Assembly (NCBI RefSeq): GCF_004010195.1 | Contig: NC_057710.1 | Span: 153,709,110 to 153,773,109, forward strand | Source of the DNA: Chiloscyllium plagiosum | Lineage: Eukaryota | Direction: 5' to 3' | Length of the DNA: 64,000 nt | Shown: one piece after another, positions 16,150-39,554 of the stretch | Layout: each line of letters opens with the position of its first letter | Numbering within the stretch: the first letter of the stretch is position 1 | Position numbers and translations under genes: made by a program | The notes under the pieces: model-generated | Databases searched by the model: none | Seen by the model: the letters and a program-made list of their open reading frames with translations, nothing else | Told to the model about the DNA's origin: nothing

Positions 16150-16208
16150 CTGTTTAAAAAGAACACAAATCTTCAGTCATTTGGAAATACAACTGTGTTA
16201 TACTGTTA

Positions 16209-16421
16209 TAAAATAAAGAACTGGGAGTGCTGGAGACCTGGAATAAAAAGGGAAACTGCTGGAGAAACTCAGTAGGTCTGGCAGCATCTATGGGGAAATA
16301 AAGAGTTAATGCTTCGAGTCTGGTAACTCTTCTTCAGTTCTGACACCAAATGTTAACACTCTTTTCTCTGCACAGATGGTGCCAGACCTGCTGAGTTTCT
16401 CCCGCAATTTCTCTTTTTGCA
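16209..16421. mobile_element. Fold-back mini-element derived from a PLE 3' end
   Basis: Imperfect inverted arms (gctggagaaactcagtaggtctggcagcatct / agatggtgccagacctgctgagtttctcccgc); 11-bp TSD TTATACTGTTA at 16198-16208 and 16422-16432. Confidence 0.75.
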
Positions 16422-17845
16422 TTATACTGTTACTTTTAAGCAAGCTACTTCTACAAAGTCAGAGTGCGGGGGGAATGCAGAGGAGGGTGTGGGATAAAAC
16501 AAAGAGGAAGTGAGTTCACCACTTGAAATAATGTAATTAATTTAAACAAAGCATAACATGCTTTGTGGATCAGTGGATTCTCAAACTATGGACCCCTCTA
16601 AGTTATATTCCCGGTCTATGCAAACAGATCTCAGACAAAGCAGGGTGAAACACCCATTTGCTTCAGTGCTTCCTGTGCTAGCTAGTAATCCCTGCTGGAC
16701 AGTCAGAATTCCAAAGTTGGAGAGCCTTTAGCCTGCTCAGCTATTTAAAAATCTGGGCTTCACCCTATGTTCATCCAAGATCAGGATGCCACCGCAAAAA
16801 TTCAAGCACAAAGGGGCAAAGTTTCTGCCAAGGCTTCCTGATCATTCTTTGTCACTTTGGTATAAGTGCCAGGAAGTGGTGTCTTCCACCATTTTCTCTG
16901 GCTCTCCTCAGTTTTTGGTGAAATTACAGCAGAGACTGGAGGATCCTGGATCCCTACAAACACCAGACCTGTGTGTGGTAATGCTCATACAATGTACTTG
17001 CTTACCATTCTGTGCAAAAATATACTATAAGCAGAAATATATTAATCTAATGCATTTCAATTTTATTCCAGTGGTTATTTTTAAGCAGCATTAACAGTTT
17101 TAATAATGCACAGTCACCATATGCAAAATAAAAGGAAAGCAAGGAGCATTCAAGGACAAACCAGGGTATTTTAAAAAACATCAGTACTTCACACATGGTT
17201 TGAATTCTATGCTCAACTGAAAAATTAATTCTGCCCCAAATGAACTCATATTACTTTAACACTTTTTTTAAGTGAAAAATTGTGAACTTCTCCACCAACT
17301 CAAAATATTGCAATTGAATGGAATAATATCTTTTCAGCAAAATCACTGGCTTTGCGGTTTATTTTTAGTTTGCATATTAGGAATGCCTTGTTCAGAGCAA
17401 TGTGTTTTGCTGTTGATTCTTTCATAAATATTTTTCTAATTGCCTTATAAACCTGCTCACTCTTCCCGCCAAAGACCAGATCCCATTTGAATGACTCATC
17501 TACATAGCCTGTTTTTCCATCAGTACACCCACTTCTCTTGGCACACGGTTAGTCCTGAACCCTGGAACAGAGTGACATTTGCGAAACAACAAACAGCTGT
17601 GAAAGGCTACAAATGTCTGCAGGAACTCAGAACAGGGAGAATGTTGTTTAACCAGTCTTGAAGTCCACCAAACAAGAACAACATTTTTTGGGACAACTAC
17701 GTGGAATTTCCCGATGGTCTGCTGCGAGTTCTTAAAAACAGGTATTAGTCCTGAAGCAAGAGCATCATTCAAATAGAACGCCCTTTTCTGGACGTCATTT
17801 AGCATGAGAGGAAATGAGGCAGTCCAGCAGAGGAGGTCTGGAACT

Positions 17846-17849
17846 CTCA

Positions 17850-17881
<32 letters not shown>
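17846..17881. repeat. (CT)n(CA)n compound microsatellite
   Basis: Directly visible. Confidence 0.9.
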
Positions 17882-18935
17882 AACGCAGTACTTGATATGC
17901 TGTACTTGCACATATAAAATATCAAAAGAAAGGGAATTGTTTACTTGTAAAACCTAATGTGAAGTTATGGCATTTACCCTGTGGTACATGGCATTGTCTG
18001 TATGAATGTTCAATATTAAGACCATATACGCAGCATGAAATACATCATTTATCATAATTTCTGCAGAATTTCTATTTACACCTGGTGTTGCAGAACAAGA
18101 TTCACCACATTTAAAAACACATCTTATTCAAGTACCAGCCTAGCCTTTCTCATCTTGCCACTTTATTTAGTTTTACCTACTTGGTCATTTCTATTCCAGT
18201 CTCAGCGCTGGCTCTCCTTACCCTTCTCCTTCATACCTTGGCCTTTTCTCTCTCCCGGCCAGGTTTATGATCTCCAGCACCGTTCTGCACGAGTACTCTC
18301 AACCTTCAAAGATGCCAGCGCTGTTCCAAAACACACGTTTCTCCCATGTAGCAGAGGGAAATTCTCCCTGCCCCACTGAACGTTTGTTTCTCGTCCTTGC
18401 CAAGCTGCAAGAACACACATCCTCCTGCAATGCTCTTGCCCCTCCCTATATCCTGCCTGCTGGATTCATACCACAATATCCTTTTTCAAATTAATTTACA
18501 CAGCACTAGTGTTTCTTTCTTCCTTTAATCTTCCCTCCAGTTTACATTCTTCAAGCTTCGTGTCACATAATCATCATCCTTCTTCACTTAACTCATCTGT
18601 TTTATATTTTCTTCAACCTTGGTGGTGTTTTCCTCCCAGGGCTTTGAACCTTCACTTTCGTTTCCAAGCCCAAGTGTCTCATGGTAACCAATTAACGACT
18701 TATTCCTTCACCTCACATGGTTTGGTCTAGATTAAGTACCGCTTTCATTCAGTGAGTGAAAGTAGAGGAACCACATCAAAGCCTTTTTTTTAAAGCACTA
18801 CACAGTAATAGATCATTCAAATCATACACTATAATCGTGCCCACTATCAGTGGGTTACAAGATCGGGCAAACAGCAAGATACAGTGTAACAGGGCAAACA
18901 AGACAACTTATGGAACAACCAATACATTAATGTTT

Positions 18936-19247
18936 GATTAGATTAGATTAGATTCCCTACAGTATGGAAACAGGCTCTTCGGCCCAACAAATCCACACCG
19001 ACCCTCCAAAGAGTAACCCACCCTACATTTACCCCTGACTAATTGACCTAGCACTATGGGCAATTTAACATGGCCAATTCACCTGACCTGCACATCTTTG
19101 GATTGTGGGAGGAAACCAAAGCACCCAGACGAAACCCACGCAGACACAGGGAGAATGTGCAAACTCCACACAGACAATCGCCTGAGGCAGGAATCGAACC
19201 CAGATCCCTGGCACTCCGAGGCATCAGTGTTAACCACTGAGCCGCCC
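18936..19247 (-). mobile_element. HE1-type SINE
   Basis: tRNA-like head with GGTTCGATTCC, same body as 2323-2627, (AATCT)n tail. Confidence 0.85.
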
Positions 19248-19462
19248 TCGCTGCTAATATGTAAATTTAACAAGTACACAAAGCATCAAAAACTGGGCCT
19301 GCCAACCTCCTTTGCATGTATTGAGCTATTGCAGCCTCCGCATGACGTTTAGCCCAAGTTAAAATTGTGTTTTATATTTAATAGCAGAAATCCCACTGCA
19401 GTGGACCGAGCAAAGAAAACAATCCAGTTTAGAATTCTCTAAACTCTGGTGAATGTACATAT

Positions 19463-19596
19463 TGGAGAAAGTGCTTCTGCAGATGCTGGAGATCAGAGTC
19501 GAAAGTGTGGTGCTGAAAAAGCTGGGGCCCTTCAGTCTCCTGCTCATCGGATGCTGCCTGACCTGCTGTGCTTTTCCAGCACCACGCTCTTGACTC
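19463..19596. mobile_element. Fold-back mini-element derived from a PLE 3' end
   Basis: Inverted segments agagtcgaaagtgtggtgctg / cagcaccacgctcttgactct; 13-bp TSD TGAATGTACATAT at 19450-19462 and 19597-19609. Confidence 0.8.
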
Positions 19597-22500
19597 TGAA
19601 TGTACATATCACCAACATTTCAAAACCAGGCGCCACTGGAGAACAAACTATTTAAATTGCTGTTTGATGTATCAGAACATTTCTCCATGCGGGCCTACTG
19701 CATATCATAAATACCTGGCCTCTTTACTACCTGTATGGAGAAAGGTTTCAGCAAAATGATACAATTCCCCAATATAATCACTTTCTCACAAGAACTCTGT
19801 CCAATAAAGTCACATCCAGCTAGTTATTTATGCTTTCTTTCTAAGCAAGTAGAGGTTGTTACCTTAAACAGGGCTAGGATTGGATATAACTAGTTGTTAA
19901 ACAATAATTTTAAACAGCACATTTAATGCAGTTAAAAATCCCAAGGCACTTTAAGTGAAGCATTATCAAATGAAATATGACACTGATCCACGTAACAAGG
20001 TATTCGGCTGGGTGATGGAAAGCTTGATGAAAGAGTCACATTTTAAGGAGGGTGCTTAAAGAGCAAAGAGGTGGTGAGGGTGAGAGGCCATGAAAGGCAT
20101 GGAATTGGTGGAAAGTGAGTGGAGTTTGCGGCAGGCATTGAAAACAATGGCTTCAGTCATCTCAGCATTTTGTTGGAGAAAATCTCTGCTCATTCATCAC
20201 TGGGTGTTGGACAAACAGTCTGATAGTTTGAGAGAGAGTGCAAGATTGAAGGAGAAGGTGCAGTACAGTGGTTACTGCCAGGTGTTAATGTTGAACTTGA
20301 AGGAGCAGCACAAAGACCAAGAGGGAACTGAAGAGGGATCCTTGGTGGCCACAAAGAATATCGCTGCATGAGCAGGAAGAGAAACCTTTACAAGTGATTT
20401 ACGTCTTGGTAGAAAAAACTGAAGAGAGCGTTCCCAGCAAGGGAACGGCTGAGAGGAGGCATCAAAGACGACTTAACCACAAAGGGAGCTTGAGAAGGAT
20501 GAGAAAGAATTTTATATAATCATCACCATCACAAAAGATGTCACCTGCAAGCTCTAAAAGACAGGAGAGGTGAAAGTCCAATTAGTACTGGAACCTCATC
20601 CATATGCTTTCACTAATTCTAGATTCAACTAATCCACAAAGCTCCCTGCCCAACCTCCTATCTTCCACCTTCCATAACATCATCCAATCATGTCATTTGG
20701 GAAAGATGGGCGTAGATTTGTGACGGGTGACAGCGTGTTTGAGGGATTCAGAGAGGAAATGGAGGCAGGGAAATGTTTGGCAGTTTGCGAGAGTGGCTAA
20801 AGGAATCATTTTTGAGAGAACGATGTTGGCAGATTTATAGGGGAGGGGACAGTACCTGAGGAGAGGCAACTATTAACAATTTCAGCTAACAGTGGAGGCC
20901 AGAGGAGAAGTTGGATGAGGTGGTCAGTTGGAGCTTTATTCTATCATGGGTATGTGCATTACTGACAAGGTCAGGATTCAGAGCCCATCCTTTGCTGTTC
21001 TTGAACGGAGTGGTTTGCCCAGCCAGTTCAGAGAACAATTAAGAGAACCACATTTCTGTGGACCTGGAGTCACATGTAGACCAAACCAAATAAGGATGGT
21101 AGACTTCCTCTCTTAAAAATGACATTAGTTAATTAGTGTGCTTTTATGATAGGCAATATGGTTTAATGGACTTTATTACTCAGACTAGCTTTCTATTGGA
21201 GAATGGTTAATCAGTTGAATTTAAACACCATTAGTTGCCATGGATAACAAAATGCATCAGCAATTCGCTCAAAAATGAGACTGAGGGGTTAGGAGGTGGG
21301 ACATATGATCAAAATGAGCCAGAAAAGGGTAAAATGGAAAAAAGGAGGAAGATAGGTCCATGACTAGAGGAAGCCTTCAACAACACTTTGCCTGCTGGAA
21401 CACGGAGGTGGAATGGATGGCGTCAACTTCTGTGACCAGAGGAAGTGACTTAGAGGTTACTTTTCTATGCCAGGATGATCCTGGGATTATAAGCAGCTTT
21501 TGCAGCCCAAAGCAAAACCTGTTAGTACTATTTGTGGTCCAGACAGAGCTGGCAAGGGATGGCTAAAGCAGTTGTCTGCTATATCCATTCAACTCTGTAC
21601 CCTTTGGACTTAGGGGAGTAGAGATAAAGGTTGCACTAGGGTTTTGGCTGCGGTGATGGTGGGGGGGAGGATTTTTAAGGGGGAATTAGCCATTAAAAAT
21701 GGGGAGAAGGCTGTCATCTTGAAGACTGATATTTGCAAAAAAGTATTCTGGTGGACAGAGAGTTAGAAGCTTGACAGATGGAATTTTGTTAAATTGGCAG
21801 TTAGCCAATTGGAAAGTCTTTTTAAAACCCTAGAACACAGAAGTAGGATTAGAACAGGAAAGGGGATGTGAGTGGAGAGTGATACAAGTAAAGTGAGGAG
21901 CAATGGTTTAAAGGTGATTGACAGGTGGGAACAATGAGGACATATGAGACAGCAAGATTTAGGAGGTGGCTGTGAATATATTATAGAGAGGGAGAGAGAT
22001 TAAAGAAGGAGAGGAGAACAGCGATTCAGATAACAGTTAGCATGAGGGATTCAAATTTAGGTCAATGAAACATCTAGAGGAAGTCTGTCCTCAATAAGAT
22101 TCATGGTATATACCATTTTTTAAAAAAAAAAGGCTCATAATTATATTTACATTTTGCTTTCAATTAAGGAATTAATAAATACTCAAACTCGATTTGGAAT
22201 CATGGGTGCAAACTGAAGTTTGATTGATTCTGAATTGTCAACAAAATCTATGGGTGATCCCAGTATGGAGGAACACTGGTATGAGGAGAGGTTGAGTAGG
22301 TTGGGCATGAACTCATTGGAGTTAAGAAGAACAAGGGGAGTCCTTATTGAAACATACATGTGTCTTAGGGGCTCAAAAGACTAAACATTCAGAGTTTACT
22401 TTTTCTTGGGAGACAGTCTATGACCAGACAACGTAATCTTAAGCTATTGTTTGTTTGTGAGGACAGACCTGGAAGTTAATTACAGGTTGGTTATTGATTA

Positions 22501-22663
22501 AAGGATTCTATGAACTGTTCAATATTGACATTATGTTTAACCAGATACATACAAACTAGGAGCAGGAGTAGGCCATTCGGCCCTTCGGGTCTGCTCCACT
22601 ATTCAATAAGATCATGGCTGATCTTTTCATGGACTCAGCTCCATTATCCTCAGCTCTACAGGA

Positions 22664-23092
22664 TTTCTCGAACTCAGCACCACCTTCCTAAACTACAATC
22701 TTCTTCCTGACCTCTCCGCCCCCACCCCACTCTAACCTATCACCCTCACCTTAACCTCCTTCCACCTATCGCATTTCCAACGCCCCTCCCCCAAGTCCCT
22801 CCTCCCTACCTTTGGTGACCGCTTCACTGAACGTGGAGAAAGTGAGGTCTGCAGATGCTGGAGATCAGAGCTGAAAATGTGTTGCTGGTAAAGCACAGCA
22901 GGTCAGGCAGCATCCAAGGAACAGGAGAATCGACGTTTCGGGCATAAGCCCTTCATCAGGAATCCTGATGAAGGGCTTATGCCCGAAACGTCGATTCTCC
23001 TGTTCCTTGGATGCTGCCTGACCTGCTGTGCTTTACCAGCAACACATTTTCAGCTCTGATCTCCAGCATCTGCAGACCTCACTTTCTCCACG
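22664..23092 (+). mobile_element. Young PLE 3' fragment with an inverted duplication of its end
   Basis: About 22726-22812 is near-identical to 59108-59194; the 3' end matches 59227-59353. Confidence 0.8.
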
Positions 23093-23110
23093 TTCAGTGA
23101 AGCGGTCACC
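22814..23110. repeat. Perfect palindrome, 148-bp arms, 1-nt loop (axis 22962)
   Basis: 22814-22961 is the reverse complement of 22963-23110; no mismatch found by eye. Confidence 0.95.
22960..22997 (+). ncRNA. Minimal type-I hammerhead ribozyme motif (PLE type); mirror copy on the minus strand at 22927-22964
   Basis: GAATC-CTGATGA-A-GGGC-TTAT-GCCC-GAAA-CG-TC^-GATTC: stem I, core box, stem II, GAAA, palindromic ACGT stem III and GUC cleavage triplet. Confidence 0.75.
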
Positions 23111-23373
23111 CAGTCCACCATTAGTTTCCCCAGTCTAGGGGAGACCACATTGTGAGCAGCGAATCTATTAGACTACATTGTGGGAAACGTCGGTAAGGTG
23201 CTGCTTCATTGGTGCGGTGTGGTTGAGCCCTTGGATATTGAGAAAGGAGGACAGAAGTGCGAAACTGTTACACCTTCGGCAGGGGCAAGAGAAGTGCCTC
23301 TGTGGTGTGGGGTGAGGGCGTAATTTTGGGAGTGAATAAAGAGTGAACCAGGGTGTCCTGGCTCTTCCAGAAG
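23093..23373 (-). mobile_element. Older PLE GIY-YIG endonuclease fragment
   Basis: Minus strand reads as a degenerate C-x2-C...IRCSQCGL...GET...LGDRFTE pattern; ends at an N-gap. Confidence 0.6.
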
Positions 23374-23389
23374 NNNNNNNNNNNNNNNN

Positions 23390-25049
23390 AAATTTCTGTG
23401 ACCATATGCATGTCCAGGAGTCTCTTAAATGTCCCCAATGACCCTGCCTCCACAACTGCTGCTGGCAACGCATTCCATGCTCTCACAACTCTCTGTGTAA
23501 AGAACCCGCCTCTGACATCCCCTCTATACTTTCCTCCAACCAGCTTAAAACTATGACCCCTCGTGTTAGTCATTTCTGCCCTGGGAAATAGTCTCTGGCT
23601 ATCGACTCTATCTATGCCTCTCACTGATTGGTTTATAGAATTTCATATCTGAACAGAAATACTTTGTCACCTTCCTCTGCTTCTTAATTAGTGATCGAGT
23701 CAAAAGAAAGCTTAACGAAAAGATTATTATACGCGGATTGAGTTCCTCTGCATACATCAGTCCTGACATCCCAGGAATGAGAGTGAACAAAATGTTGTGC
23801 TGTACAGCTCTATGTCTCCAAGTGCTTCAGCAAAATGGTGGTAATCTGCAATAAAAACAAAACGTGCTGGAGATCCTCAGCAGGTCTGGCAGCATCTGAA
23901 ATGGTGACAGATGCAGGAAACGTTGCAGCCTTGAAGAAGTGTTTAGATGATCACACCAGGCATGTGTTTGATGACCAATATGGAGAAGATGGAGACAGTG
24001 TATTCATACAGTTTTACAACTGAGACTCTGACCCCATTTTATTCTGTATTTCTCTGTGATTCCCTCTTCTCAGAAGTAGGCAGGATTGGGAAGCAGTGGA
24101 GAATGTAAATGATGGCTGACCTTCCTAGTGAGAGGATAGAGGAGAGGAGCAGGGATCCCTTTCTGGAAGAGCCTTGGTGATTGTGAGAGAGTAAATGAGG
24201 GTCACCAGACTGACTCCTGAGATGCGGAGATAGTTAAGGACTGCAGATACTGGAAATCAGAGTCTATACAATGTGGAATTGGGGAAGTGCAGCAGGTCAA
24301 GCAGCATCAAAGGAGCAGGAAAGTTGACGTATTGTGTCATGACACTTTGTCAGTCCTGATGAATAATCCTGACACGGAACATCAACTTTCCAGCCCTACC
24401 TTATTCATGCTGGTCATCAAGCACCTATTTATTCTAGTCCCACGTTCTGGGACACAGCGTGTAAATGATATTGTAGTGCTTGGTGTGATCATCTCAACAC
24501 TTCTTCAAGGCTGCAATGTTTCCTGCATCGGTCACCATTTCAAATGCTGCCCGACCTGCTGAGGATCTCCAGCACGTTTTGTTTTTATTGCAGATTACCA
24601 CCATTTTGCTGAAGCACTTGGAGACATAGAGCTGTACAGCACAACATTTTGTTCACTCTCATTCCTGGGATGTCAGGACTGATGTATGCAGAGGAACTCA
24701 ATCCGCGTATAATAATCTTTTCGTTAAGCTTTCTTTTGACTCGATCACTAATTAAGAAGCAGAGGAAGGTGACAAAGTATTTCTGTTCAGATATGAATTG
24801 AGGTATACAAGATAATGAGAGGCATAGATAGAGTCGATAGCCAGAGACTATTTCCCAGGGCAGAAATAACTAACACGAGGGGTTATAGTTTTAAGCTGGT
24901 TGGAGCAAAGTGTAGAGGGGATGTCAGAGGCGGGTTCTTTACACAGAGAGTTGTGAGAGCATGGAATGTGTTGCCAGCAGCAGTTGTGGAGGCAGGGTCA
25001 TTGGGGACATTTAAGAGACTCCTGGACATGCATATGGTCACAGAAATTT
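23390..25049. repeat. Inverted duplication with ~570-bp arms (23390-23963 / 24477-25049); each arm includes a CR1 3' piece
   Basis: ORFs 23268..23624(-) and 24815..25051(+) are near-identical; 23642-23885 matches the reverse complement of ~24554-24797. Confidence 0.85.
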
Positions 25050-25132
25050 AAGGGTGCATACATGGGGATCAGTGGTCAGCACAACATCATGGGCTGAAGG
25101 GCCTGTTCTGTGCTGTACTGTTCTATGTTCTA

Positions 25133-26455
25133 TAACCTGCGCTCTCACTGTATAGCTTAATTCTTTTATTGTTGAACAAATATCTATTGGTAAAAACGTT
25201 TACTGAAGCAGTGTCAACTACTTCCCTGGGCAGGGAATTCCATAGATTCACAACCCTCTGGGTGAAGAAGTTCCTTCTCAGTTCAGTCCGAAATCTGCTC
25301 CCTCTAATCTTGAGGCGATGCCCTCTTGTCCTCGTCTCACCCGCCAGTGGAAACATCCTCTCTACTTCTATCGTATCTATCCCCTACATAATTTTATGTT
25401 TCTGGAAGATTCCGCCCTCATTCTTCTAAATTCCAAAGAATATAATCCCAGTCTACTCAGTCTCCCTCATAAGCCAACCCCCTCAACTTTGGAATCAATC
25501 TCGTGAACCTCCTCTGCACCCCCTCCAGTGCCAGTACATCCTTTTTCAAGTAAGGAGACCAAATCTGCACACAGTACTCCAGGTGTGGCCTCACTAGTAC
25601 CTTGTACAGCTGCAACATAACCTTTCTGCTTTTAAACTCAATCCCTTTAGCAATAAAGGACAAAATTCCATTTGCCTTCCTAATTACCTGTTGTACCTGC
25701 AGACCAACCTTCTATGATTCATGCACAAGGACACCCAGGTCCCTCTGCACAGCAGCATGCTGCAACTTTTTACCAAACAAGTAATAATCCTTTTTACTGT
25801 TACTCTGACCAAAATGGATGACTTCACATTTACTAACGTTGTATTCCATCTGCCAGACCGTTGCCCACTCACTCAATGTATTTCTGTTCCTCTGCAAAAT
25901 TTCACAGCCCTCTGCACACTTTGCTCGGCCACTCATCTTAGTCTCATCTGCAAACTTTGACACCCTTCACGTGGTCCCCAACTCCAAGTCATCTGTATAA
26001 ATTGTGAATAATCGCAGTCCCAACACCATCACTGAGGCATACCACTGGTTACTGATTGCCAGCCAGAATAGCACTCATTTATCCCCACTCTTTGCTTCCT
26101 GTCAGTCAACCAATCCTCTATCCATGCTAATGCTTTACCCCTAACGTCATGCATCCTTATCATATGCAGGTGTCTCTTGTGTGGCACCTCACCAAAGGCG
26201 TTTTGTAAATCCAGGTACACCACATCCACTGGGTCCCCACTATCCACCTTGCTCATAATGTGTTCATAGAATTCCAAAAGATTTGTCAAGCATGGCCTGC
26301 CCTTCATGAATCCGTTTTGCATCTGCCCAATGGTACAATTTCGATCGAGAGGTCTTGCTGCTTCTTCCTTGATAATAGACTCAAGCATCTTCCCCACTTC
26401 AGAGGTTCAGCCATCCAGTCTATAATTTCCCATCTTTATCTACCTCCCTTTTTAA
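25133..26455 (-). mobile_element. CR1 LINE RT and 3' region
   Basis: ORFs contain VDVVYLDLQNAF, SKFADETK, LVRPHLEYCVQIW and FFTQRVVNLWNSLP. Confidence 0.9.
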
Positions 26456-29059
26456 GCACGGATAGCAGATTGTTGGCCATTAATGAAGTCAGTATCTGGG
26501 AGATGGTCCCAGCAAATCAGAGAGGGAACATGATGATAGAACAGAGGGAGAGGCCAGCGCTGGAACTGGTGCTTGGGACTGTGATTCTGAGAGGCAGGGG
26601 TTTGGCTGTTGATGCTACAGCATGAAGATTTGAAAGCTCCTTGCCTAACCTCCCATTATTGACTATTGAATGTTCAAAAAATAGAAGCTAAGTTACAAGT
26701 GTTATTGAAAACACCTCAGAGTGAAAAGGTGGCACTGATCGACATCTCCAGAAAATCAATCAAGAAACAATCATCTATGCCTGTGGAATCGTGCACCATG
26801 AAAACCGCTCAATAAATTGGGCTAGTTTTGTTTATTCTTAAATTATCTCTTAACTGTGTTGTCTGTCATTTGTGGGAATGGTACTGAAACCAAAAGGTTA
26901 TTGGATTTAAGTGACAGACATTGATTAGGTTATTTTGATGTTTAATTTTGCTCTGCAAAAAGTTCCTGTATTGTTAATAAATTGCAATCTGTTTTGTTTA
27001 AGCTACAAGCCTGGTGTCTATAATCAATTATTCATAAAGCCTGGGCTTAGTTATTCAAAGAAGTCTGGTTACAAACCATTCAGGTCATTTTGAAGGGTTT
27101 TGAAGGTGTTAAGTCTGTATACAAATACAAACCTGGGTAGGCTGATTGGATCAGTTGTCTGTGTCCCAGTTGTAACATGTACAACATATATTCAATGTTT
27201 AATAGTTTAAGATACAGACCAACAAACTGTAATATTTTACAATCCTTGCAGAAACACCTTCAATCTCCAGCCTATCAGCACATAAAACACATGCTTTTTT
27301 TTAGACTTGGTTAAATAAGTGCCATTTTTAAAACCAAACCTTTGTAACAATTTCTCTCCCCCATCACAACCTTCTGTTGAATAATGTCCACATTTCTGTA
27401 AATATTGAACCGGTTTACAACTTTAAATATTATTTCATAACTTATTGTATATGATGTGCAATAACTTGTAATACCTGCAATAAATTAGTTTCGCTTTTCA
27501 ATATTATAGTGTTTGAAACAATCTTGGGTCACTTCACATTTATCCAGCAAGTCTGCACTCAGCTAAATCCCTGGCTGAGTGTAATAGCTCAACGAGTTTA
27601 AATTTGTGTTGCTGTGAACAGAAATCTGGATAAGTTGTTCAACACAAGAAATAGTTTCACCTCCTATTTACTGAAACCTGTATTCACACAAACACATGTA
27701 ATTGATTGGTCCATTCAGTTTGCCAACAGTGTGCAAAACAACCTGGAAAACTCAGATGACCAAAACTGCACAATGAGGAAGGGTCATGGATCTGAAATAT
27801 TAACGGTTTTCTCTCCACGGATGCTGCCAGATCTGCTGAGTCTCTCAAGCAATTTTGTTTGTGTTTGTTTCAGGAAAATTTAAACATTGAACATTGGTTT
27901 TCAAGATGCTGACAACAAAAAAAAACAAACCCCTGAAAACAGAAACCTTCCATGCAGTTAGATGACAGCAGAGTGATGAACCGGCTAGCCTGAATTTAAG
28001 CTTCAAATATCCTCAAAAAATGCCTGCAGCAGATGTGCAAAAGATTGCAATACAAATTGTATGTTTTAAAACATGTTTTTATCTAATGTCAGTGCAGGTC
28101 TAGGGACCTAGTTCTAATATTAATGGAATGACTATCTATCTGCTTCCATTCTGTCGACAGAAGAGTTCCTTGCTTCTGAGCAGGGGCAACATAAGCAAAA
28201 TAGTGAAAGTTACAATGAGATTTTCAATTGAACATGCTGGCATGTAAAGACAGACTCCTACCAACTGTCCAAAGGCAATTGATACATAATAGCTGTACAA
28301 GCAAGTTGGAATATTCATAATTACGTTAGTCAGCAAGAGAGACAAATGCAACTTGATTTTGGCATTCACTGTAAAGTTGCAATTTTGCCAGGTCTTGAAA
28401 AATAGTTTCGGAATTTTATCTTATCAGCAAGGAAATTACAACAAACCAGACCTGTCACTCCACCCTTATGAGCAAAAGCAACCTCATATCACAGCACATA
28501 AATCAATATACTGTCAGAACATATCCCTGAGGGCCTTTGTGGCATTTCTATGGACTGTGACCCATCCCACTTTAGCACTGCATGGTTCACCTCCACCCAA
28601 ATACCACACTTCCCAACAATCGGAGATAAACTGGTCTTTCCAGGTACTGGCATATCGAGGGCCACTCCCTGACGATGAACACTATTATTCTGTAAAACAA
28701 CAAAAAGTTAACTTCTGATGCACTTCACCACATTGGCCACTTGTGAAAAAGATGATAGTAGAAACATTTAGGGATCCATAAATTTAGTGGCACAAATATA
28801 TCCATTTCTCCCCTCATTTATTTTTCCACATTTTTAACTCTTCAGTCACACTGCAGGCTAAATTCAGCAACAGGGATGAACTACATTAGTGTATAAAACG
28901 GCAGCTTATGGCATTAACAACACCCATGAATTACCACTCTCGAGGAGTTAGTTCTGTGGTTCTAATACCAGGGAGAGTTTGTGCAGACTAATATAGATGC
29001 TGATAGCAAGACACTCCAAGATGTAGGTCTCTGCTCCCCGTCCTGTACAGAACTGTCCT

Positions 29060-29200
29060 CAGAACAGTTTGTGAGGAAGGGCCCCTAAACCCGAAAGGTT
29101 AACTCTGATTTCTCTCCACAGATGCTGCCAGACCTGTTGAGCTTTTCTAGCAATTTCTGTTTTTATTCCTGATTTACAGCATCCACAGTACTTCCGGTTT
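29060..29200 (+). mobile_element. PLE 3'-end fragment with a decayed hammerhead-like motif
   Basis: gtgaggaagggcccctaaacccgaaaggttaact followed by the cagatgctgccagacctg tail; a similar remnant lies at ~27774-27870. Confidence 0.6.
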
Positions 29201-30247
29201 TTAAAATTCTGTCATGTTCAGATTCCTTCATGACCTAATCCCACCCTTTATCAGCATAACCTTTCAACAATGCTACAAATCCATCAAAAGCTCTACAAAC
29301 CTCCAATCCTTATTCTCTCCATTCCACCACTGGCATCCATGCCTTCGGCTATCTAAACTTTAGGTTCTGTAAATTCCTCCTTCACTTCACCACCTCTCTC
29401 TCTCCCCCCCCCCCCTTTTTAAACCCACCTCTTTCCCAAGCTTAGAATCGCTGTTAAGATAATTCCATTTGTCTTGATGTAAATCTTTCTCTGATTGTAC
29501 AAAGCAATGGGAGTTCTCACTAAAGCACCACATAAAATATATGTTGCTTTGATGTTTTTTTTAAATGATGTAAATCAAGGATCTTTTCTGAATGAACTCT
29601 AATGTCATGTGGGTGTAGCTTTTCACTCAGCAGAATTTTAGATTGGACATCTCAATTCCAAAGAAAGTATCGTCATAGCAATCTAGCATTGTTGATACAC
29701 GATTATTTTAAATCACTAAGATACAAACAAGTTGTGAAATACTTTGTGGGTTGTAGTTTGTTCTATTACCTGAAATGATACATTTAAGTATTTACGGTTG
29801 CAGACTAGAAGGGTTAAATCCTACAGTTCATTCAAGAAAACAGTGGGCATTAAATTGATCTTCCACATTAACTCAAAAAGAGTGACAGCAAATTGCTGTT
29901 GAGCTTTTTCTGTCACATTATTTTTCCTTTACATCTTCGTGCTAAACTGACAACCAGTTTACCATCATGTTTCATCCAAACTGCTGTGGATCACATTGGC
30001 TCCAAGCATACCTTTCATTTCTTACGAAAATAAATCAGTCTGCTTTCCTGGCCTCTATTTTTCATCATGTTAAATACTTTCTTGGTGTGGTTTTTGTCCT
30101 ATTTTACTCAGTGTTTTTCACTCTCAGTTCAAAGAAACAATTTCACAGTATCATTAACCACGAAGTCAAAGATACCAACACAAATGTAAATGGCAAACAG
30201 CCCTGAACGTTCTGTTAATCCATTTCTCCACGTTACAAGATCATGAG

Positions 30248-30597
30248 GAAGCATGGTGGCTCAGTGGTTAGCACTGCTGCCTCACAGCACTGGGGACCCA
30301 GGTTTGATTCCGGCCTTGGGCGACCGTCTGTGTGGAGTTTGCACATTTTCCCGCAGTTTGTGTGGGTTTCCTCTGGGTGCTCTGGTTTCCTCCCACACAG
30401 TCCAAACATGTGCAGGTTAGATGAATTGGCCATGAGAAATTCCCCATAGTGTTCAGGGATGTGGAGGCCAGTTGTATTAGTCAGGGAGAATGTAGAGTAA
30501 TAGTACTAGGGGAATGCATCTGGGTGGGATACTCTTCAGAGGGTCGTGTGGACTTGTTGGGCAGAAGGGCCTGTTTCCACACTGTAGGGATTCTTTA
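30248..30597 (+). mobile_element. HE1-type SINE, near full length
   Basis: A box TGGCTCAGTGG, B-box-like GGTTTGATTCC, conserved body, 3' end gtttccacactgtagggattct. Confidence 0.88.
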
Positions 30598-31883
30598 TTC
30601 TCAGGTATGATACAAGTTAGAGAGGTCAAGAAGTGACAGTTATAAAGTGTATGTGCATGCATGTCTGTGCATGCATGTACGTATGTGTGCGCACGTATTA
30701 ACCCAACCAGACAGGAGGAATGAGACAGGTTAGCCTTCAAAATGGAACCCTGCTGGTTACCACTCAACTTCTCATTGCAGTTTTGTGACTGAAACACAGA
30801 ATGTAAGCAAGTGGGAAACTCAAATTCACACAAATTACATCAATGGGATCACAATCAGAATTCAACTCAGTCCTAAATACATAAGTCATCTTGGCTTTCC
30901 CACAAGTTAAAGTCACGCAGCAGGTTTGAATTACCAAGTGAATCAATTTCTTCATTTGTGGGGTCCTGTTGAACAGGAATCCTTCTCAAAGTCTCTCCAG
31001 CTAACTCCCAGCCCCACCAGCCTAGGACTCCCACCGTCCTTCCTGTGGAAGCTTCCCTACTTGAACTCCCCTTTGCTGATGGGCAGGAGCTCCCAGCAGC
31101 CAGTAATTTTACCCCTGCTTGACCACCCTCTGTTACTTTCCTCACAGTTTGGCCATGGTGCTCACCAGTGACAAGCAGAAGAGGAAGCAGAATTAAAAAA
31201 CTGCTGCGTGAGTCAATGATTGCTTGTGTATTCACTTATCTCTCACTTGCAAGATTCAGTGGAAGCTAAAAAATATCAACCCATAGACAAACAGACAGGA
31301 GACAGGCATACACACAACCTATTGCTCAAGTGTAGAACCTCTGAGAACAGTGAATATAAGTCAAATAATTACAACAAGAGGTCTCTACTCTGTAAAGCTT
31401 ATCTACTCTGAGTCATTAAAATAACTGCACAATATTGGTCCACATGTTCTAGTTCAATGGAAAAGGGGCATTTCAATTTACAATAATTGAATTCATGAGC
31501 ACTAGAATACCTATCCCTACTATTGCTGCTTCTGCTTTGAAATCATGTGGCGTCCAGTCCTTTCACAACAATTTATAGAAAATTCTCTGTTGACGTGATG
31601 GAAGGAAAGGGAAAAGAGGAATTAAGTGTTTATGAAAACATCAGCGATGCTCAAATATTTGGCCTGTTTCTCTAATTCTACCAAGGAACATTCAAAGGGC
31701 TGATGTCACACCAATGTAAATTATTTATTGTACTCTGAAAGCTGTAAAATGACTCATAAGTAGGTGTAGAATTATGATCAAGGATAAATAAACCATTTAT
31801 AAACTTTTATTTGTGGAGAAAGATGGACAAAGGGCCTGGGTCCCAGATACAGGAGGAGTTTACTAATAATTAATAGAAAATTA

Positions 31884-32592
31884 CATAGAGTCAGAGATGT
31901 ACAGCATGGAAACAGACCCTTCAGTCCAACCCGTCCATGCCGACCAGATATCCCAAACCAATCTAGTCCCACCTGCCAGGACCCAGCCCATATCCCTCCA
32001 AACCCTTCCTATTCATATATCCATCCAAATGCCTCTTAAATGTTGCAATTGTACAGCCTCCACCACTTCCTCTGGCAGCTCATTCCATACACATACCACC
32101 CTCTGCGTGAAAAAGTTGCCCCTTAGGTCTCTTTTATATCTTTCCCCACTCACCCTAAACCTATGNNNNNNNNNNNNNNNNNNNNNNNNNNNNNNNNNNN
32201 NNNNNNNNNNNNNNNNNNNNNNNNNNNNNNNNNNNNNNNNNNNNNNNNNNNNNNNNNNNNNNNNNNNNNNNNNNNNNNNNNNNNNNNNNNNNNNNNNNNN
32301 NNNNNNNNNNNNNNNNNNNNNNNNNNNNNNNNNNNNNNNNNNNNNNNNNNNNNNNNNNNNNNNNNNNNNNNNNNNNNNNNNNNNNNNNNNNNNNNNNNNN
32401 NNNNNNNNNNNNNNNNNNNCCAACTCCTGTACTCAATACTCTGACCAATAAAGGAAAGCATACCAAACGCCGCCTTCACTATCCTATCTACCTGAAACTC
32501 CACTTTCATGGAGCTATGAACCTGCACTCCAAGGTCTCTTTGTTCAGCAACACTCCCTAGGAGCTTACCATTAAATGTATAAGTCCTGCTAA
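31884..32592 (-). mobile_element. CR1 LINE 3' fragment spanning N-gap 32166-32419
   Basis: GNFFTQRVVCVWNELP and FGMLSFIGQSIEYRSW flank the gap. Confidence 0.85.
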
Positions 32593-35481
32593 TGAAGCCA
32601 AATAGTCAGCCACCTGCCATTTGAATATAAATAGTCTTTGCCCAAGGAAAGGAACCCAAGTACAAAATAAAAACATACATCAGAGCGTGTTAAAACCTGA
32701 ATTGCCTATTATAATTATATAGATGTGAAATACGTTCAGGCAGGTTCGAACCATGAAAAATTAATGGATTGGGTGCTAGGCTACAGAACATATTCACTTT
32801 CGTTAAAACCGCCAAATATCAATGTTCATTAGAAACAGCAAGGTTCAGAGTACAGCATTTCCATGCTGTCTGTACAATGTCCAACTTACCTAATATGAAA
32901 AGCATGTGACACAGCTGCTTCAGTATAGGGTGGGGACGTTTTAGAAAGGAACCAACCGCTGACAATGGAAATACGTGTCTACTTTGTTTAAAAGAAAAAT
33001 TACCTAGTCATCCTGACTGCTCTAAACATGCCTTGAAACGGTTTGTGTTCCCAACATGTTTAAACAGAAATATGGTGCTGGTGTACTGAAAATGGGGGCA
33101 GCTGCTTTTCCTTTCTCCTTACCAATTTCCCCCCATTTCTCCAGAAGGCACCAACTGGTTTTCAGGCTATGGTTCAGGAAGCAGCAGGCACCACCAGCAT
33201 CTTCGTCATGTGACCATTATTAATGCATGCTCCCTGCCATACTGTCAGCAAACTAACTGCCCTTGGGGAGGATTGCATCATTGTGTTCTGTCCCACACAA
33301 ATAGTAGAAGTCACCATATAGCGGTCAGTTGCAGACATCCAATTGCCTACAAAAATTAAAGATACAGACAGTGGTGGAAATCCTTAGTAGCTCAGTGTAA
33401 AACTGTATGCTAGCTCTGCCAGTATATTGTAAATAATATTAAACCATTTCATTCACTGTCACCAATCCTTTGTGCTTGTATTAGTTGAGATATCAATACC
33501 TAAGGTAGAAGATGGGTTCTGTGTTAGTTAAACTGTAAAAGTTCTTTGCACGTTACTTAGCAATCAACTATATTACATAAAGTGACTGAGACACATATCA
33601 AGCCCAAATTAGGATCAAGTACACTTCACTTGGTTAGCTACACACTGTAATGTTAAGAACAATCACTGAAGTACCTGACTCCCTCTTGTGATCACATGCA
33701 AAACGCATAAGCCACACACACACACAAGTGTGGTTAGCTCTTCCCAGAATAGGTCATTTATATCCTGAGGAGTGCATCTTCTCCTGCAATGTCCATTATA
33801 CTTTTCAGGTATTGCCTTTTGCAACAAGCCAGGCAGCCTCTGGGAAGGGAGGAGGTTGATACTGTTTCATTTGGACATGTCAGAGATGAACAGCTTACAG
33901 GAGAGTGGAAACAGGTAAAACGGTGTGGAGGGAGGATTAAAAAGAAATGGTCTGTGGTAGGATGGAGTCCAGGAGATGACTATATGACAAAAATTATGGT
34001 TGTGCAAGACAAAAGAAAGAAATCAACTGAACAAAATATGTAATGGAGACCCAATGGATATCACAAAAGAAATGCTATTTTCAGAACACTGGAAGAGGAT
34101 AGAATATTTGTTTGGTGGTGGGATCATTTGAGGTGAAAGACGTGGATGATCCATTAAAATATGCATACAGCAAGACAAGAGAAATTTCTGCACCTCAGGG
34201 TCCTTGATCCTGAGCAAGGCCAGCCCTCAGCCACTTAAATGGCTGACTGGTGGGCTTTCCCCAAAGGAGGCAAAATCAGGCTTTTGCAGTCTGAACAGCT
34301 GGAGGATGCAACCTTGTTGCTTATGTTAAATTTTGGACACACTGTGCAAACAGTACACATTTCCAATTCTCACCAGGATGGAGTGAGGATCACCTAACGA
34401 ATAAACGGAAGTAAACTGGACCCAAGATGTTGTCCCGAGTAACTTGCAGGGATGAACTGGATTACAACGTTGTCTTCCTCTGCATAAACCCATGTACAAT
34501 GCCTCTGATCCCCAATCTTTCAACTGTACTTGGGTATCCTAGTCAGACTCCTGAATGCTGTCTTGATGTCAAGGTCAGTGACTGTCATCACCTCTTTTAT
34601 CTATGTTTGAACAAGGCAATTTTGAGCACTTAAACCATGGTTACTAATCCAGACTGAGCATTTTGACTAAATGCCTCTTGAAATAACACTCACGTCACTT
34701 TGCTGACAATTGAGTGGTAGCTGACAGGAATAGTAATTGGTCAGATGAAGTTTGCTTTGCTGTTCATGCAAATTAAAATTCCAGACAATTTTTCACATTG
34801 TGAGATGGATGCAAATGTTGTTCCTTTACTGGAACATGTTTGAGGTATGGCTAATTTTGAAGCTTCCAGTACTTTAGGAGTATACTCTTTCAATACTCTA
34901 AATAGTTGTGTTTGGGAAACTTAGCTTTTGCCACGTTCAGTCCACTCAACTGTTTCGCGATCTCACATGAAGTGAATCAACTGGCCGGTGATCGGCATCT
35001 GAGATGATGGACACCACAGGATGAGGTCAAGGGAGGTCATTCACTCCACTTTCTGGATGAAGGTAGTGTTTGGTCTTGTCTTCTCCACCAGGCTGTGCCA
35101 TTATTAAAGTTGTCGATATTCATGGAATTCCCTCCTCCCATTAATTGCTTACATTCCCACGACCATTTGTGGCTGAAAGTGGTCAGATTGCAAGATTTTG
35201 CCTGATAACAGATTTTGTGGCACATCACAATGTCAGTAATATACTACTCTTTGTCCAGCATGTACTTCAGCAGCTTCATCAGTCTGTCATCTCATTCTCA
35301 GGTACACTCAGCTCTTCATGATGTGGTATTCTACACTTCTCATTGAATCAAAGTCTGGGAGTGAGCAATATGAATGGTGGTGAGCTTTCAGATTCTGGCT
35401 GAATACCATTCATGTTTTTGAAATCCAGTTTTATCTCCAGGATATGTTCGAAATCGGTTTCTTTTAGTGGGATAGGACAAC

Positions 35482-36025
35482 ATAACATGGCCACATTTGA
35501 AGCACTGTGTACAATACTAGTTGTCATACTTACAGAAAGATGCTAATACACTGGAAGCAATTCAGAGGTTTACTAGACTAATACCTGGAATGAGCAGATT
35601 GTCTTATGAGGAAAGATTAAACATGCTAGGCCTGTATTGTCTAGAGTTTAGAAAACTCAGAAGTGACATATAAAGATCCTAAGGGGACTTGACCAGGTAA
35701 TATGTTAAAACAATGTTTCCTCTTGTGAGAGAATCTAGGACTAGAGGGTCAGAGTTTAAAAATAAGGGGACACCATTTAAAGCAGAGACGAGGAAACATC
35801 TTTAATCTTTGGAATACCGTTCCTCAAAAAGGCAGTAGATGCAGAATCTTCAAATACTTTTAAGGCACAGTAGATAGATTCTCAATTACCAAGGGCATGA
35901 AAGATTACCAGGGAGTTGCAGGAATGTAGAGTTGAATTTAAAATCAGATGGGCCATGATCTTATTGAATGGTATGGTAGTCCTGAATGGCGAAGTGGCCT
36001 ATTCCTTGCTTGTACTTTTCTATGA
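35482..36025 (+). mobile_element. Decayed CR1 LINE 3' fragment
   Basis: Degenerate RPHLE-C, LSYEERL and SRTRG-SLK motifs and a CR1-type 3' UTR. Confidence 0.75.
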
Positions 36026-36085
36026 CCGCGTTCTGTGTTATGGAGACAGGAGCGGATTCTCAAGGTTTGTGCAGTGCTAGCTTCT

Positions 36086-36832
36086 ACATAGACTCAGAGG
36101 TATACAGCACAGAAACAGACCCTTTGGTCCAACTCATCCGTGCTGGCCCAGGTATCCTAACCCAATCTAGTCCCATTTGCCAGCACTTGGCCCATATCCC
36201 TCTAAACCCTTCCTATTCATATACCCATCCAGATGCCTTTTAAATGTTGTAATTGTACCAGCCTCCACCACTTCCACTGACAGCTCATTCCGTACACGCA
36301 CCACCCTCTGCATGAAAATGTTGCCTCTTAGGCTCCTTTCCCATCTTACCCTAAATCTATGCCCTCTAGTTCTGGACTCACCCACCCCAGAGAAAAGGCC
36401 TTGTCTATTTACCCATCCATGCCCCTCAGGATAGGTCACCCCTCAGCCTCTGCAAGTCAGAGAAAGCGGTCCCAGCCTATTTAGCCTCTCTCTATAGCTC
36501 GAATCCTCCAACCCTGGCAACTTGCTTGTAAATCTTTTCTGAACCCTCTCAAGTTTCACAACATCCTTCCTATAGGAGGGAGACTAGAATTGCACAAAAT
36601 ATTGCAAAAGTGGCCTAATCAATGTCCTGTACAACCACAACATGACCTCCCAACTCCTGTACTGAATGCAATGACCAATAAAGGCCAGTATACCAACATC
36701 TTCTTCACTATCCTATCTACTTGCGACTCCACTTTCAAGGAGCTATGAACTAAGGTCTCTTTGTTCAGCAATGCTCCCTAGGACCTTACCATTAAGTGTA
36801 TAAGTCCTGCCCTGATTTGCCTTTCCAAAATA
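36086..36832 (-). mobile_element. CR1 LINE 3' fragment
   Basis: ORF 36167..36439 (GESRTRGHRFRV...FKRHLDGYM). Confidence 0.85.
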
Positions 36833-38223
36833 TGTTACGTGATAGACAAGTGCATGTGTGCCATGTAGATTGATGACAACGCAGTCAAATAGCTGATTCT
36901 ATTGCACTGGTCTCCTACTGCCTGTTGTAAGCCAGTCTGACAACTGTATCATCAAAATTGGACAACTTCACACAAACCACAATGCAACCTGCATACTGGC
37001 TAAACCAGTCAATTTATTTGAAACCAAACATTCCTGGCAGCATTTGCACTGTTGCAAATCAATGATGCAAATAGAAGTTCACCGTTTCCAACCACAAACT
37101 TTGTTCACCACCAATGGCACAGTCTTTAATAGGGATTTTAAAACAGGCATTGACTCAGGCATCAGAACACAAAGTAACCAAACTGAGCAATGACTAACTG
37201 CTGAGTAAACGTCTCCTCCTTTTCCATTTTGGCGATCTTTTGGAAAAGCCACATAACTCGGAATATTTGGTTCCAAACCTTGAACACTCTACAATCCATT
37301 TTGATTTTGACTGTTAGACCAAACTGATTAAATTCTTCCAGTGCTATTAACTATTCTATCATATAACAAATATTTCAAACACTAAAATCTAAGGTCTTGG
37401 TTATAACATTTTTCTGCTTTTCCCTTCACTAATACCCAATTAGTTAAGCTTTCTGTTCTTTTCAGACACTTTATTTTGATTTTTACCTCAACCACTTTGC
37501 ACCACAGCTTCAACATTTTGTTTCCTGTTTTCTGAATCCTGCAAGTTCCTCTGCATCGATTTAAGGCTGCCTTTATTGTCCTCATTCTTCAGTTAATCAG
37601 GAGAATGCTCCCTGTCAGACTAACACTAAAAGGTGCAATATGAATTAGATGGGGACATGGGTTAGACAAGGTAAGTCCAATATATGTGTTAGAACAGCTT
37701 TCTTCTGCCCTGAATTCCTACTGTTATGACATTGGTAGAAATTGATAACCTATTTTTGTATGTAGAAATTTATGTATCAAATAAATTTAATAAAAATATT
37801 TAGTAAAAGAATTAAGCTCCTAAAACAATTAAGCCATATTGTTCACTGTTTACAACAAAGGATTACAGCACAAACATCAAAAAACGTGAATATGAATAAC
37901 TACTCACTATTTTATCAGGTTGCTTAAAGATATTAAAAGCAGAATGAATACAGTCAACATCGTCTAAACTGAACTGCCAACTCAAATTTTCTTCTAAATC
38001 TATCTGACCTAGACCCACAAAAAGACTTAATTCAAACGATCATCAAACATCAAAAGATTAACCACTTGTGCCAAGATTTAATATTCCTTGCATTAAGTGT
38101 GGAGGGAATGGGCATCTTCAGAGGTGACTGACACCCTGCCCCACCAACACGATATCTTGCCGGATCCAGCTCCAAGATGCTGATCGGAGAGCTTCTTGAT
38201 GAATCAACAACTTTGAAACTCAA

Positions 38224-38414
38224 TAAAAGCAAATTACTGCGGATGCTGGAATCTGAAACCAAAAGAGAAAATGCTGGAAAATCTCAGCAGGTCTGGCAGC
38301 ATCTGTAAGGAGAGAAAAGAGCTGACATTTCGAGTCTAACTGACGGGTCAGCTCTTTTCTCTCCTTACAGATGCTGCCAGACCTGCTGAGATTTTCCAGC
38401 ATTTTCTCTTTTGG
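38224..38414. mobile_element. Fold-back mini-element derived from a PLE 3' end
   Basis: 68-bp perfect arms (38259-38326 / 38347-38414), 20-nt spacer; 14-bp TSD ACTTTGAAACTCAA at 38210-38223 and 38415-38428. Confidence 0.88.
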
Positions 38415-39554
38415 ACTTTGAAACTCAAGTCCTGCTTTGCTTGCAGCTTCTGGACCCTGACATCATCACTGAAGGCCCAGGTCTTTGAGTCTCATGTTGA
38501 GAGAGTTGTGAGACCTGGGTCAGGAGGCTTGCCAGAGGCTGGGCCAAGTGTAGGTCCCAAAAGCTGTAGGAACTGGTTATTCAGCCCGCCAAGTCTCTCG
38601 CACCTTCAATGGGATAATGGCTGATGTGCTAATCTTCAATACCACTTTCCTGCCTTTTCCCCATAACTCTTGGTTCCCTTACTGATTAAAAACCTCCCTA
38701 TGTCTCTCGTCCACAAATATCCAATAGGCAGATTGCCCTGTGTCCCATTCGGGAAATCAGGTATTTTTCTGCCTACTCGGAACGAGGTAGTCAGATCAAT
38801 GATGAGTTGAGGTCCTCAAGCTGCTGCCAATTGATCATTTATGGGCTTCAATTGGTGTGATGGCTTCTTTCCCACTCCTTAACTGCTGTGGTGGTGAGAA
38901 GGCAGCTGGTGTCTCTCCAAGGCCAGCTCATTGACTATTTGCCCTTCTCACACCTTTTTTGTCACCTCCAGGTGATGGCCTGTTGTGCCTAGGCTTAGTC
39001 TAAGTCCTCTTGAAAACCATGTACAATGGTTGCAATTCCTTGGGTCTTCCACTTTAATTCCAGCAAGTATTGCTCTTCATATCTTCTCCAACTGTCCCAC
39101 GGATAGAGACCTCCCTGGCTTCACTCGCTTCTTAAACATAGCCACCTGGATCAGGATTTTCCTGGTTCTGTTGTTCTTTAGCTCCAGAACCTTGCCTCTA
39201 GAAACTAGCTTTCTCTCTCGCTGTCACCAAGACTCTTTCAGTCAAGGGTTTTAAGCCCTTTTAGCCAGTACACAGATTTTTCAACTGAATTCTGCCTGGG
39301 AAAGTTATTCTCTGCAGCCAACTTGTTCCAAACTCAACTGCTTAAAAATCGAACCTTGCACAGGAATCTACTTTGCTCATAATTAACTCCTTGTTCAACC
39401 TTTGCTTTACTATTGTTGATCTCCAGGCAGCTTGGTCACATGATCAGTTACTGGAAGCCTTTCCTCCCCACTCACCCCACCCAAAAATCTTCCCCAGAAA
39501 ACTTGTTCCTAAAGGCACCATCACCCTTCTCATAAAATATAGATTGTTTCCCCC

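Follow-up and report, generated by a model that had tools for sequence, protein, structure and literature searches.

Ends of genomic copies suggest that the RNA of a Neptune-like Penelope retroelement in Chiloscyllium plagiosum starts just before its hammerhead motif

Hammerhead Motifs in the SH3D19 Introns

The window (the whole 64,000-nucleotide stretch of Chiloscyllium plagiosum DNA analysed here) carries the host gene SH3D19 on its minus strand, and the plus-strand motif at 22960 is antisense to the SH3D19 pre-mRNA (Table 1). The 38 nt quoted as a hammerhead ribozyme in an earlier sequence-only reading are found exactly at 22960-22997, and the full core within them is real. A descriptor for the minimal hammerhead, min-HHR (CTGANGA, stem II of at least 3 bp, GAAA, palindromic stem III, TH), matches five times in the 64-kb window, at 22965(+), 22959(-), 42548(+), 59229(+) and 63904(-), versus a mean of 0.06 and a maximum of 1 in 100 dinucleotide shuffles of the window. 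A looser hammerhead pattern, taken alone, gives two matches in the window, which is not significant (two or more in 9 of 100 shuffles). The Rfam scan of the window returns no hammerhead family match; its only matches are sub-threshold miRNA hairpins, which reflect palindromes. The best of these are caused by palindromic stubs of family C at 38271-38402 and 16257-16407, which have a common GATGCTGCC tail motif.

Positions along the element are given as q coordinates, where q1 is window position 22963, q0 and q-1 are the two bases preceding it, C3 of the hammerhead is q3 and the cut falls after q30. The core at 22965(+) consists of C3 to A9, an extra A, a 4-bp stem II, G12 to A14, an ACGT stem III and C17, with the CUGANGA, GAAA and NUH elements of a minimal type-I hammerhead. 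The stem II region, A-GGGC-TTAT-GCCC, contains both the G10.1-C11.1 pair and the extra base after A9, and the palindrome ACGT stands, as first proposed, in place of helix III (15.2-16.2). The cut is predicted between 22992 and 22993, in agreement with the site named earlier.

The intact cores reported at 42548 and 59229 are likewise verified by the descriptor. All six decayed copies listed with them do contain hammerhead-derived sequence, but they belong to at least two other families or subfamilies. Overlooked at that stage were the mirror core at 22932-22959(-), the 148-bp arms, a damaged mirror core at about 42517-42546(-) and the family D copies at 63876-63904(-) and about 50494(+). The introns of this one gene hold about a dozen or more hammerhead motifs, as claimed, and this load is ordinary when compared with the genome-wide density of one exact tail 33-mer per ~37 kb (97,186 exact matches of one 33-mer in the 3.56 Gb genome).

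A perfect inverted repeat with 148-bp arms (22814-22961 versus 22963-23110) carries the motif at 22960 on its right arm. The end module on this arm contains both 3' end sites of the family, at about q92 (23054) and about q128 (23090), and the UTR fragment beyond the left arm is the native hammerhead-upstream sequence, stopping ~34 nt short of the hammerhead. The 5-bp stem I described for this copy is present at the locus, but it is not native: its GAATC strand comes from the inversion junction, because the native upstream sequence is CTCATTC, with which stem I comprises two pairs, a U-U apposition and one further pair. Helix I is accordingly ATTC/GATT in the native form, ATTC/GAAT (4 bp) in a sister subfamily and 3 bp in other families.

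Elsewhere in the window, the palindromic insertion around the 42548 core is flanked by a 16-bp target duplication (42442-42457 / 42678-42693), and the intact core at 59229-59256 retains its native upstream sequence. The hammerhead of the older copy near 50 kb is damaged (~50347-50374), and no hammerhead was found with the minus-strand fragment at 43180-44330. In an annotated SH3D19 isoform of a related shark (P0121), the first 49 residues map to 49812-49958(-) with 94% identity, on the antisense strand of the endonuclease fragment 49650-50429; judged by this match, the first exon in that annotation would be retroelement-derived, whether the exon is real or mis-predicted. Degenerate LINE-like ORF2 pieces, with the motifs WISWLGRI, CPKC and HCLWAC, lie at ~39850-41350(+) and are presumably of L1 type.

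Table 1. Features of the window related to the hammerhead-bearing elements and their host intron
Feature	Position	Strand	Basis or remark
SH3D19 intron containing the motif	16155..46723	-	between exons 46771-46724 and 16154-16107
C-rich 3' UTR fragment, same family	22667..22813	+	sequence comparison
Left arm, perfect inverted copy of 22963-23110	22814..22961	-	includes 18 nt of non-element flank
Identical mirror core on left arm	22932..22959	-	pattern and descriptor; sense to SH3D19 pre-mRNA
Pseudo-LTR end module q1-q130, hammerhead and tail	22963..23092	+	sequence comparison
Minimal type-I hammerhead core	22965..22992	+	pattern and descriptor
Older Penelope-like endonuclease fragment beside the young copy	23093..23373	-	sequence comparison
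Short-arm plus long-arm palindromic insertion	42456..42672	.	intact core 42548(+); typical form
Older Penelope-like RT thumb-to-endonuclease fragment	43180..44330	-	sequence comparison
Older palindromic insertion	48071..48238	.	arm starts: q31 in one, q6 in the other
Older copy	49650..50429	+	Cys linker, GIY-YIG endonuclease, UTR, hammerhead, short tail
5'-truncated copy	58423..59353	+	RT thumb 58423-58845, assembly gap, 3' UTR, core, tail
Family D hammerhead, AGCT stem III	63876..63904	-	descriptor-positive

The Carrier Element

A Neptune-like Penelope retroelement carries the motif as the minimal hammerhead of its pseudo-LTR. The unit runs in the order hammerhead, tail, ATG at q165, RT, Cys linker, GIY-YIG, UTR, hammerhead, tail. 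The placement at the 3' ends of Penelope-like elements (PLEs) proposed at first holds for the 3' side, but the hammerhead also precedes the ORF and is therefore a pseudo-LTR motif. On the 3' side, most of 30 loci chosen by their RT thumb show the order thumb, endonuclease, UTR, hammerhead, tail. On the 5' side, the hammerhead lies upstream and runs to the start codon in 5 of 30 N-terminal loci (older subfamily), and exact tail-to-ORF junctions of the young family, with the ATG at q165, number 400 genome-wide. At loci L183, L197 and L210, young copies of the ORF N-terminus start at about q130-145, just past the long tail end, and are preceded by inverted sequence.

The closest protein relatives are from sharks and rays, as expected for the shark Penelope-like element proposed earlier; for the RT thumb, proteins with RT and GIY-YIG follow further out. 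The ORF relatives carry RT (PF00078) and GIY-YIG (PF01541), in some cases in one protein. The identity of the element is taken from homologues and motifs, because a Pfam scan of two short ORF fragments of the window gave no match. Natural copies show RT motifs, a CX4CxxC linker and a GIY-YIG with two inner cysteines, with IIYCIRCTRCGLLYIGET followed by EH and HF; this is the single ORF with RT and C-terminal GIY-YIG of an EN+ Penelope-like element. A young full-length intact ORF was not recovered among the genomic copies examined. The linker reads CNRKKCKTC in 5 of 7 copies examined and fits the pattern CX2-5CxxC between RT and endonuclease, which is common to Neptune and Nematis; this linker and the inner-cysteine GIY-YIG are marks of Neptune or Nematis elements (PMC8557442). 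The Neptune-like placement is thus a putative one, based on motifs shared with Nematis. The earlier assignment of the motif to the minimal type-I hammerheads carried by Penelope-like elements is correct.

Conservation Within and Between Families

The ribozyme claim was to be checked by excess conservation of core bases and by stem covariation. Among copies there is no significant excess: in 55 young copies, non-CpG core positions are changed at 4 of 550 sites and tail positions at 13 of 715 (counted by hand, leaving out two subfamily sites; Fisher p = 0.14), and G12, which lies in a CpG, is mutated in 9 of the 55. Because these core and tail rates do not differ significantly, the copies are seen to decay neutrally. 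Between families, on the other hand, stems I, II and III change in a compensating manner. Read by eye, stem III is ACGT or AGCT, stem II is GGGC/GCCC, GGAGC/GCTCC or GTTACC/GGTAAT, and the first pairs of stem I are TC/GA, ATTC/GAAT, GTT/AAC, CAC/GTG, GCA/TGC or CCA/TGG. The hammerhead fold is probably maintained by selection in the master elements.

Family D (L113, L125, L145, L196, L213 and L217) has a TATA box, CTATAAAT, ~35 nt before the core, and several of its copies are truncated 3-8 nt from the core.

Ends of the Genomic Copies

Copy ends were sampled from the first 100 listed tail-33-mer matches on chromosome C1 (first 3 Mb), taken with their flanks. The sampled DNA holds 110 matches, membership requiring the exact 33-mer, and 86 strict family-A copies were kept after 24 had been dropped (17 of other subfamilies, 6 at gaps, 1 at an edge). 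Their 5' ends concentrate just ahead of the core, with 27 in the four positions q-3..0; 25 fall at q1..12, 2 in q-39..-4 and 20 further upstream. Longer templates exist, since 21 of the 86 extend past q-11. Microhomology joining blurs these ends by 1-3 nt. Genome-wide counts of exact 20-mers are 58,272 for q0..19, 18,974 for q-9..10 and 23,075 for q-35..-16. The idea that copy ends mark the cut site, which came from the arm at 48146, was rejected: starts at q31 number 1 of 86, the count relied on, and 2 of 159 in a wider set (family-A reference only, which may include some family-B copies), in neither case above neighbouring positions.

The base before the A at q-1 is natively C. Genome-wide, the non-native G-ATTCC occurs 7,733 times and T-ATTCC 1,420 times, a 5.4-fold excess of G where a random flank predicts about equal numbers (about 1,410 for G-ATTCC). 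With a pyrimidine required before the G, which removes most partner-arm contexts, YG-ATTCC still occurs 2,945 times versus about 560 expected. These G and T classes were counted genome-wide and the A-preceded class in the sampled loci only, where 15 junctions without a partner-arm template show G in 12, A in 3 and T in none. The site before the core reads TCATTC, which we take to fit the initiator consensus. No TATA box was noticed in the upstream region of family A. A splice acceptor at the 5' pile-up was ruled out, there being no AG at that point.

The 3' ends are bimodal, at q88-97 and q126-130, and an inverted partner accompanies 52 of the 110 copies. Among 18 automatic pairings of inverted arms, 16 join a long arm to a short one; the other two share one arm, one involving a neighbouring duplicate and one an internal deletion. 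Counted by locus, long and short arms are combined in 16 of 17 inverted loci, for which the chance is about 1e-4 at even odds (hand calculation). Both inverted arms mostly reach near q0, inside direct target duplications. The flanks of non-inverted short copies are mutually unrelated, and a target duplication of 8-17 bp is detectable in 9 of 23 such copies. Units of 6-7 nt, e.g., of CAGGAAT type, are repeated at the inversion junctions of L022, L024 and L020, which suggests slippage of the cDNA end during joining.

Tandem copies were studied in 30 loci selected for carrying the tail-to-ORF junction. Only 2 continue as long ORF copies; the other 28 are short pieces that end at q171-288 (19 of the 30 loci at q187-207), and 21 of the 30 are joined directly to another end module, starting at q-9..-1 in 12 cases. 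RNA-read mapping, a weak test based on 2% of one run of a poly-A single-cell library (a second run contributed no reads), gave no pile-up of starts or ends, q31 included. In this mapping the reads on both strands follow the genomic copy structure, and truncated genomic copies explain why the commonest listed 5' loose end of the reads is at q-1.

Proposed Copying Mechanism and Its Alternatives

The way the copies end suggests that the element RNA starts just before the hammerhead, and we consider it likely that the copies arise from a capped start 4 nt before the core, run-off on uncut RNA, twin priming and template jumps. In an active element, Pol II would start at the A of TCATTC, 4 nt before C3, and the element RNA would thus begin with the 5' strand of stem I. 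The enzyme would nick both target strands and prime cDNA internally, at about q128 on one target strand and about q92 on the other; the two-site end pattern is seen in the copies themselves, and the priming mechanism would follow by analogy with the anole element in vitro. One enzyme dimer would then prime both strands at different internal sites. On the 5' repeat only 95-130 nt of uncut RNA would be copied, with run-off at the capped end adding a C. The run-off cDNA may join the target to leave a solo stub, join the partner cDNA to form a head-to-head palindrome, or jump to about q190-200 to give a short tandem. The hammerhead would not define the ends of integrated copies; its cutting, if any, would most likely be slow, aided by protein or by dimerisation, and would remove RNA from the template pool. 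We give an even chance to the picture in which the hammerhead comes first in a capped RNA, the genomic stubs are run-off cDNAs of the 5' repeat, and palindromes and tandems result from joining and jumps.

For L1 and SVA copies, an untemplated 5' G has been explained by copying of the cap (PMC3287187); as a counterpoint, the extra C could arise by terminal-transferase activity at any template end, an uncapped one included. Transcription of the D. virilis Penelope element starts upstream of an intron that ends at helix I (PMC2377424, PMC4209133), so the capped-start geometry would be family-specific.

The q-1 pile-up could instead mark a strong stop for the reverse transcriptase, or another site of RNA processing, with the extra C untemplated. 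Such a stop fits the same end distribution, and it agrees both with the single-cell read mapping, where no capped end is observed, and with the passage of about a quarter of the copies beyond q-1. It is nevertheless unlikely, since no stable structure is predicted just upstream and the enzyme traverses stem II first, while a splice AG is missing at q-1. The site further matches an initiator-type sequence, the TATA box of family D lies at a fitting distance, and the jumps from q-1 suggest a physical end.

Less probable than a stop is the circle model of Cervera and de la Pena 2014 (PMC4209133), in which the RNA is cut by the hammerhead after C17 and copied in its cut or circular form, with tandems arising when circles are copied beyond one unit. 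Conservation of the core and stems, with compensation across families, speaks for this model, as does the weak in vitro cutting by dimers of other minimal hammerheads (PMC4209133). Seamless UTR-hammerhead-tail-ORF junctions, possible from circles, also exist, and single arms starting at q31 occur (48146 in the window; L119, L223). Such starts are, however, no commoner than those at neighbouring positions, the read mapping, weak as it is, shows no RNA ends piled up at q31, and the junctions in the short tandems connect q-1 with varying points in q171-288. Moreover, hammerhead mutants of the anole element leave insertion unaffected (PMC11167929).

For the palindromes, self-priming on an antisense template could replace twin priming, as proposed from rotifer elements for head-to-head junctions (Arkhipova et al. 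2013, PMC3846280); its intermediates would be invisible in this assembly. We hold this to be improbable to the same degree as the circles: the arms end at two separate internal start sites, in the long-short combination and inside direct target duplications, and both mostly extend to near q0, a pattern that self-priming does not predict.

Origin and Fate of the Copy at 22960

The 22960 locus itself does not speak for capped-start copying by twin priming, as it is atypical in having two long arms with 18 nt of flank included. Its arms also differ at 0 of 148 positions, compared with 2.4% (18/745) for the arms sampled elsewhere. On contig C72775 the same young insertion sits inside the same older element (12 differences over 411 nt), and there the copy (L003/L061) has the usual form of short arm, long arm and target duplication. 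This locus is, by its sequence, a candidate donor or paralogue of the block at 22960. At L003/L061 the target duplication is 12-13 bp and the initiator-like sequence is intact. The 22960 block may have been copied anew from a C72775-like solo stub that retained its initiator, or may be a later rearrangement or an assembly product; its other end is concealed by the gap at 23374-23389. Right at this gap begins a 573-bp inverted duplication (23390-23962 versus 24477-25049, 96%), with a decayed hammerhead palindrome at ~24226-24390 between its arms; an assembly problem and a larger fold-back event are both possible.

Fold predictions bear on whether this copy can act. RNA read through the palindrome on either strand gives the same 148-bp hairpin, at -315.6 kcal/mol and with a stem II probability of ~5e-15. 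On its own, the 38-mer is able to pair as stems I and II (-11.3 kcal/mol), in 2% of its ensemble, and in a cofold of two monomers the double-hammerhead pairing is not favoured (-18.9 vs -24.1 kcal/mol). The copy is probably a dead insertion, its ribozyme fold predicted to be masked by its own palindrome. That it is instead a working ribozyme kept by the host to cut SH3D19 pre-mRNA or antisense RNA is very hard to credit, despite the cores intact on both strands, the 100% identical arms and the fold open to the 38-mer, given the read-through hairpin, a stem I that is a junction product and its standing as one among tens of thousands of neutrally decaying copies.

Relation to Known Elements

The motif resembles the min-HHR of metazoan PLEs (PMC4209133) in its type-I core, the extra base between A9 and G10.1, the G10.1-C11.1 pair, the palindromic 15.2-16.2, its presence in both flanking repeats and its mostly solo copies with some close opposite-strand pairs. 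It differs in stem II (4 bp versus 7-8), in helix I (natively 2 bp, U-U and 1 bp, versus 4-5 bp), in number (more than 58,000 exact core 20-mers versus about 4,000-9,000 motifs in coelacanth and Xenopus) and in copy ends that do not track the cut site (PMC4209133). Sharks are not mentioned in the sections of that paper covered; its supplements may list cartilaginous fish.

PAc, a Poseidon element of the green anole (Frangieh et al. 2024, PMC11167929), likewise has a hammerhead at the repeat-ORF junction and two internal start sites that bound a 30-40 nt tail; its protein needs RNA about 55-60 nt beyond the second start site. In PAc both strands are cut and extended with unprocessed RNA as template, and the same would hold here. 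The clade is a different one, as the Cys linker indicates, and the ATG lies 135 nt past the cut here but inside the ribozyme in PAc. No strand difference between start sites was seen for PAc, whereas the genomic pairs here are long plus short, and the RNA 5' end of PAc is not reported in the sections of PMC11167929 covered; a search of its supplements gave no matches.

EN+ PLE insertions typically include a partial tandem and an inverted 5'-truncated copy (Arkhipova et al. 2013, PMC3846280; Craig et al. 2021, PMC8557442). The inverted head-to-head copy, the optional, one-sided tail of 30-40 bp, target duplications of 8-17 bp and an initiator-like sequence in the repeat are all found here as well. 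In contrast to those elements, most copies here are stubs of 95-130 nt that end sharply on the 5' side and carry an extra G, and the 22960 locus departs from that form by its two long arms and duplicated flank.

Non-LTR retrozymes are likewise non-coding, hammerhead-bearing derivatives of PLE repeats, reported in one cartilaginous fish, but they form tandem arrays with a hammerhead per unit, whereas the stubs here are dispersed, solo or inverted (bioRxiv 10.64898/2026.07.22.740005). Identity with them was rejected: 22960 is an inverted pair, and each sampled copy stands alone, is inverted or forms a short irregular tandem.

Earlier publications already describe hammerheads in PLE repeats, together with solo and inverted copies, pairs on opposite strands and the one-sided tail. 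Within the literature covered, whose scope excludes most subscription papers and Repbase, no paper on a shark Neptune hammerhead was found, and no report of a 5' pile-up or cap-derived extra G in PLE copies, of strict long-short pairing as twin priming, or of a jump zone in PLEs.

Significance

The motif brings a shark family into a class reported in 2014. Its value lies in the copy population, where tens of thousands of copy ends supply exact coordinates: a capped start predicted at q-1, one putative priming site per strand and a jump landing at q190-200, with ends at the cut site not in excess. The regeneration of the pseudo-LTR, the origin of inverted copies and the role of the hammerhead in PLEs have been called open (PMC2377424, PMC8557442). 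If the capped-start mechanism is true, it speaks against a main template of cleaved or circular RNA in this Neptune-like family. One mechanism would then account for both the inverted and the tandem structures of PLEs, with no role for ribozyme cleavage, and the palindromic stem III would remain available as an RNA dimer contact or a slow decapping switch.
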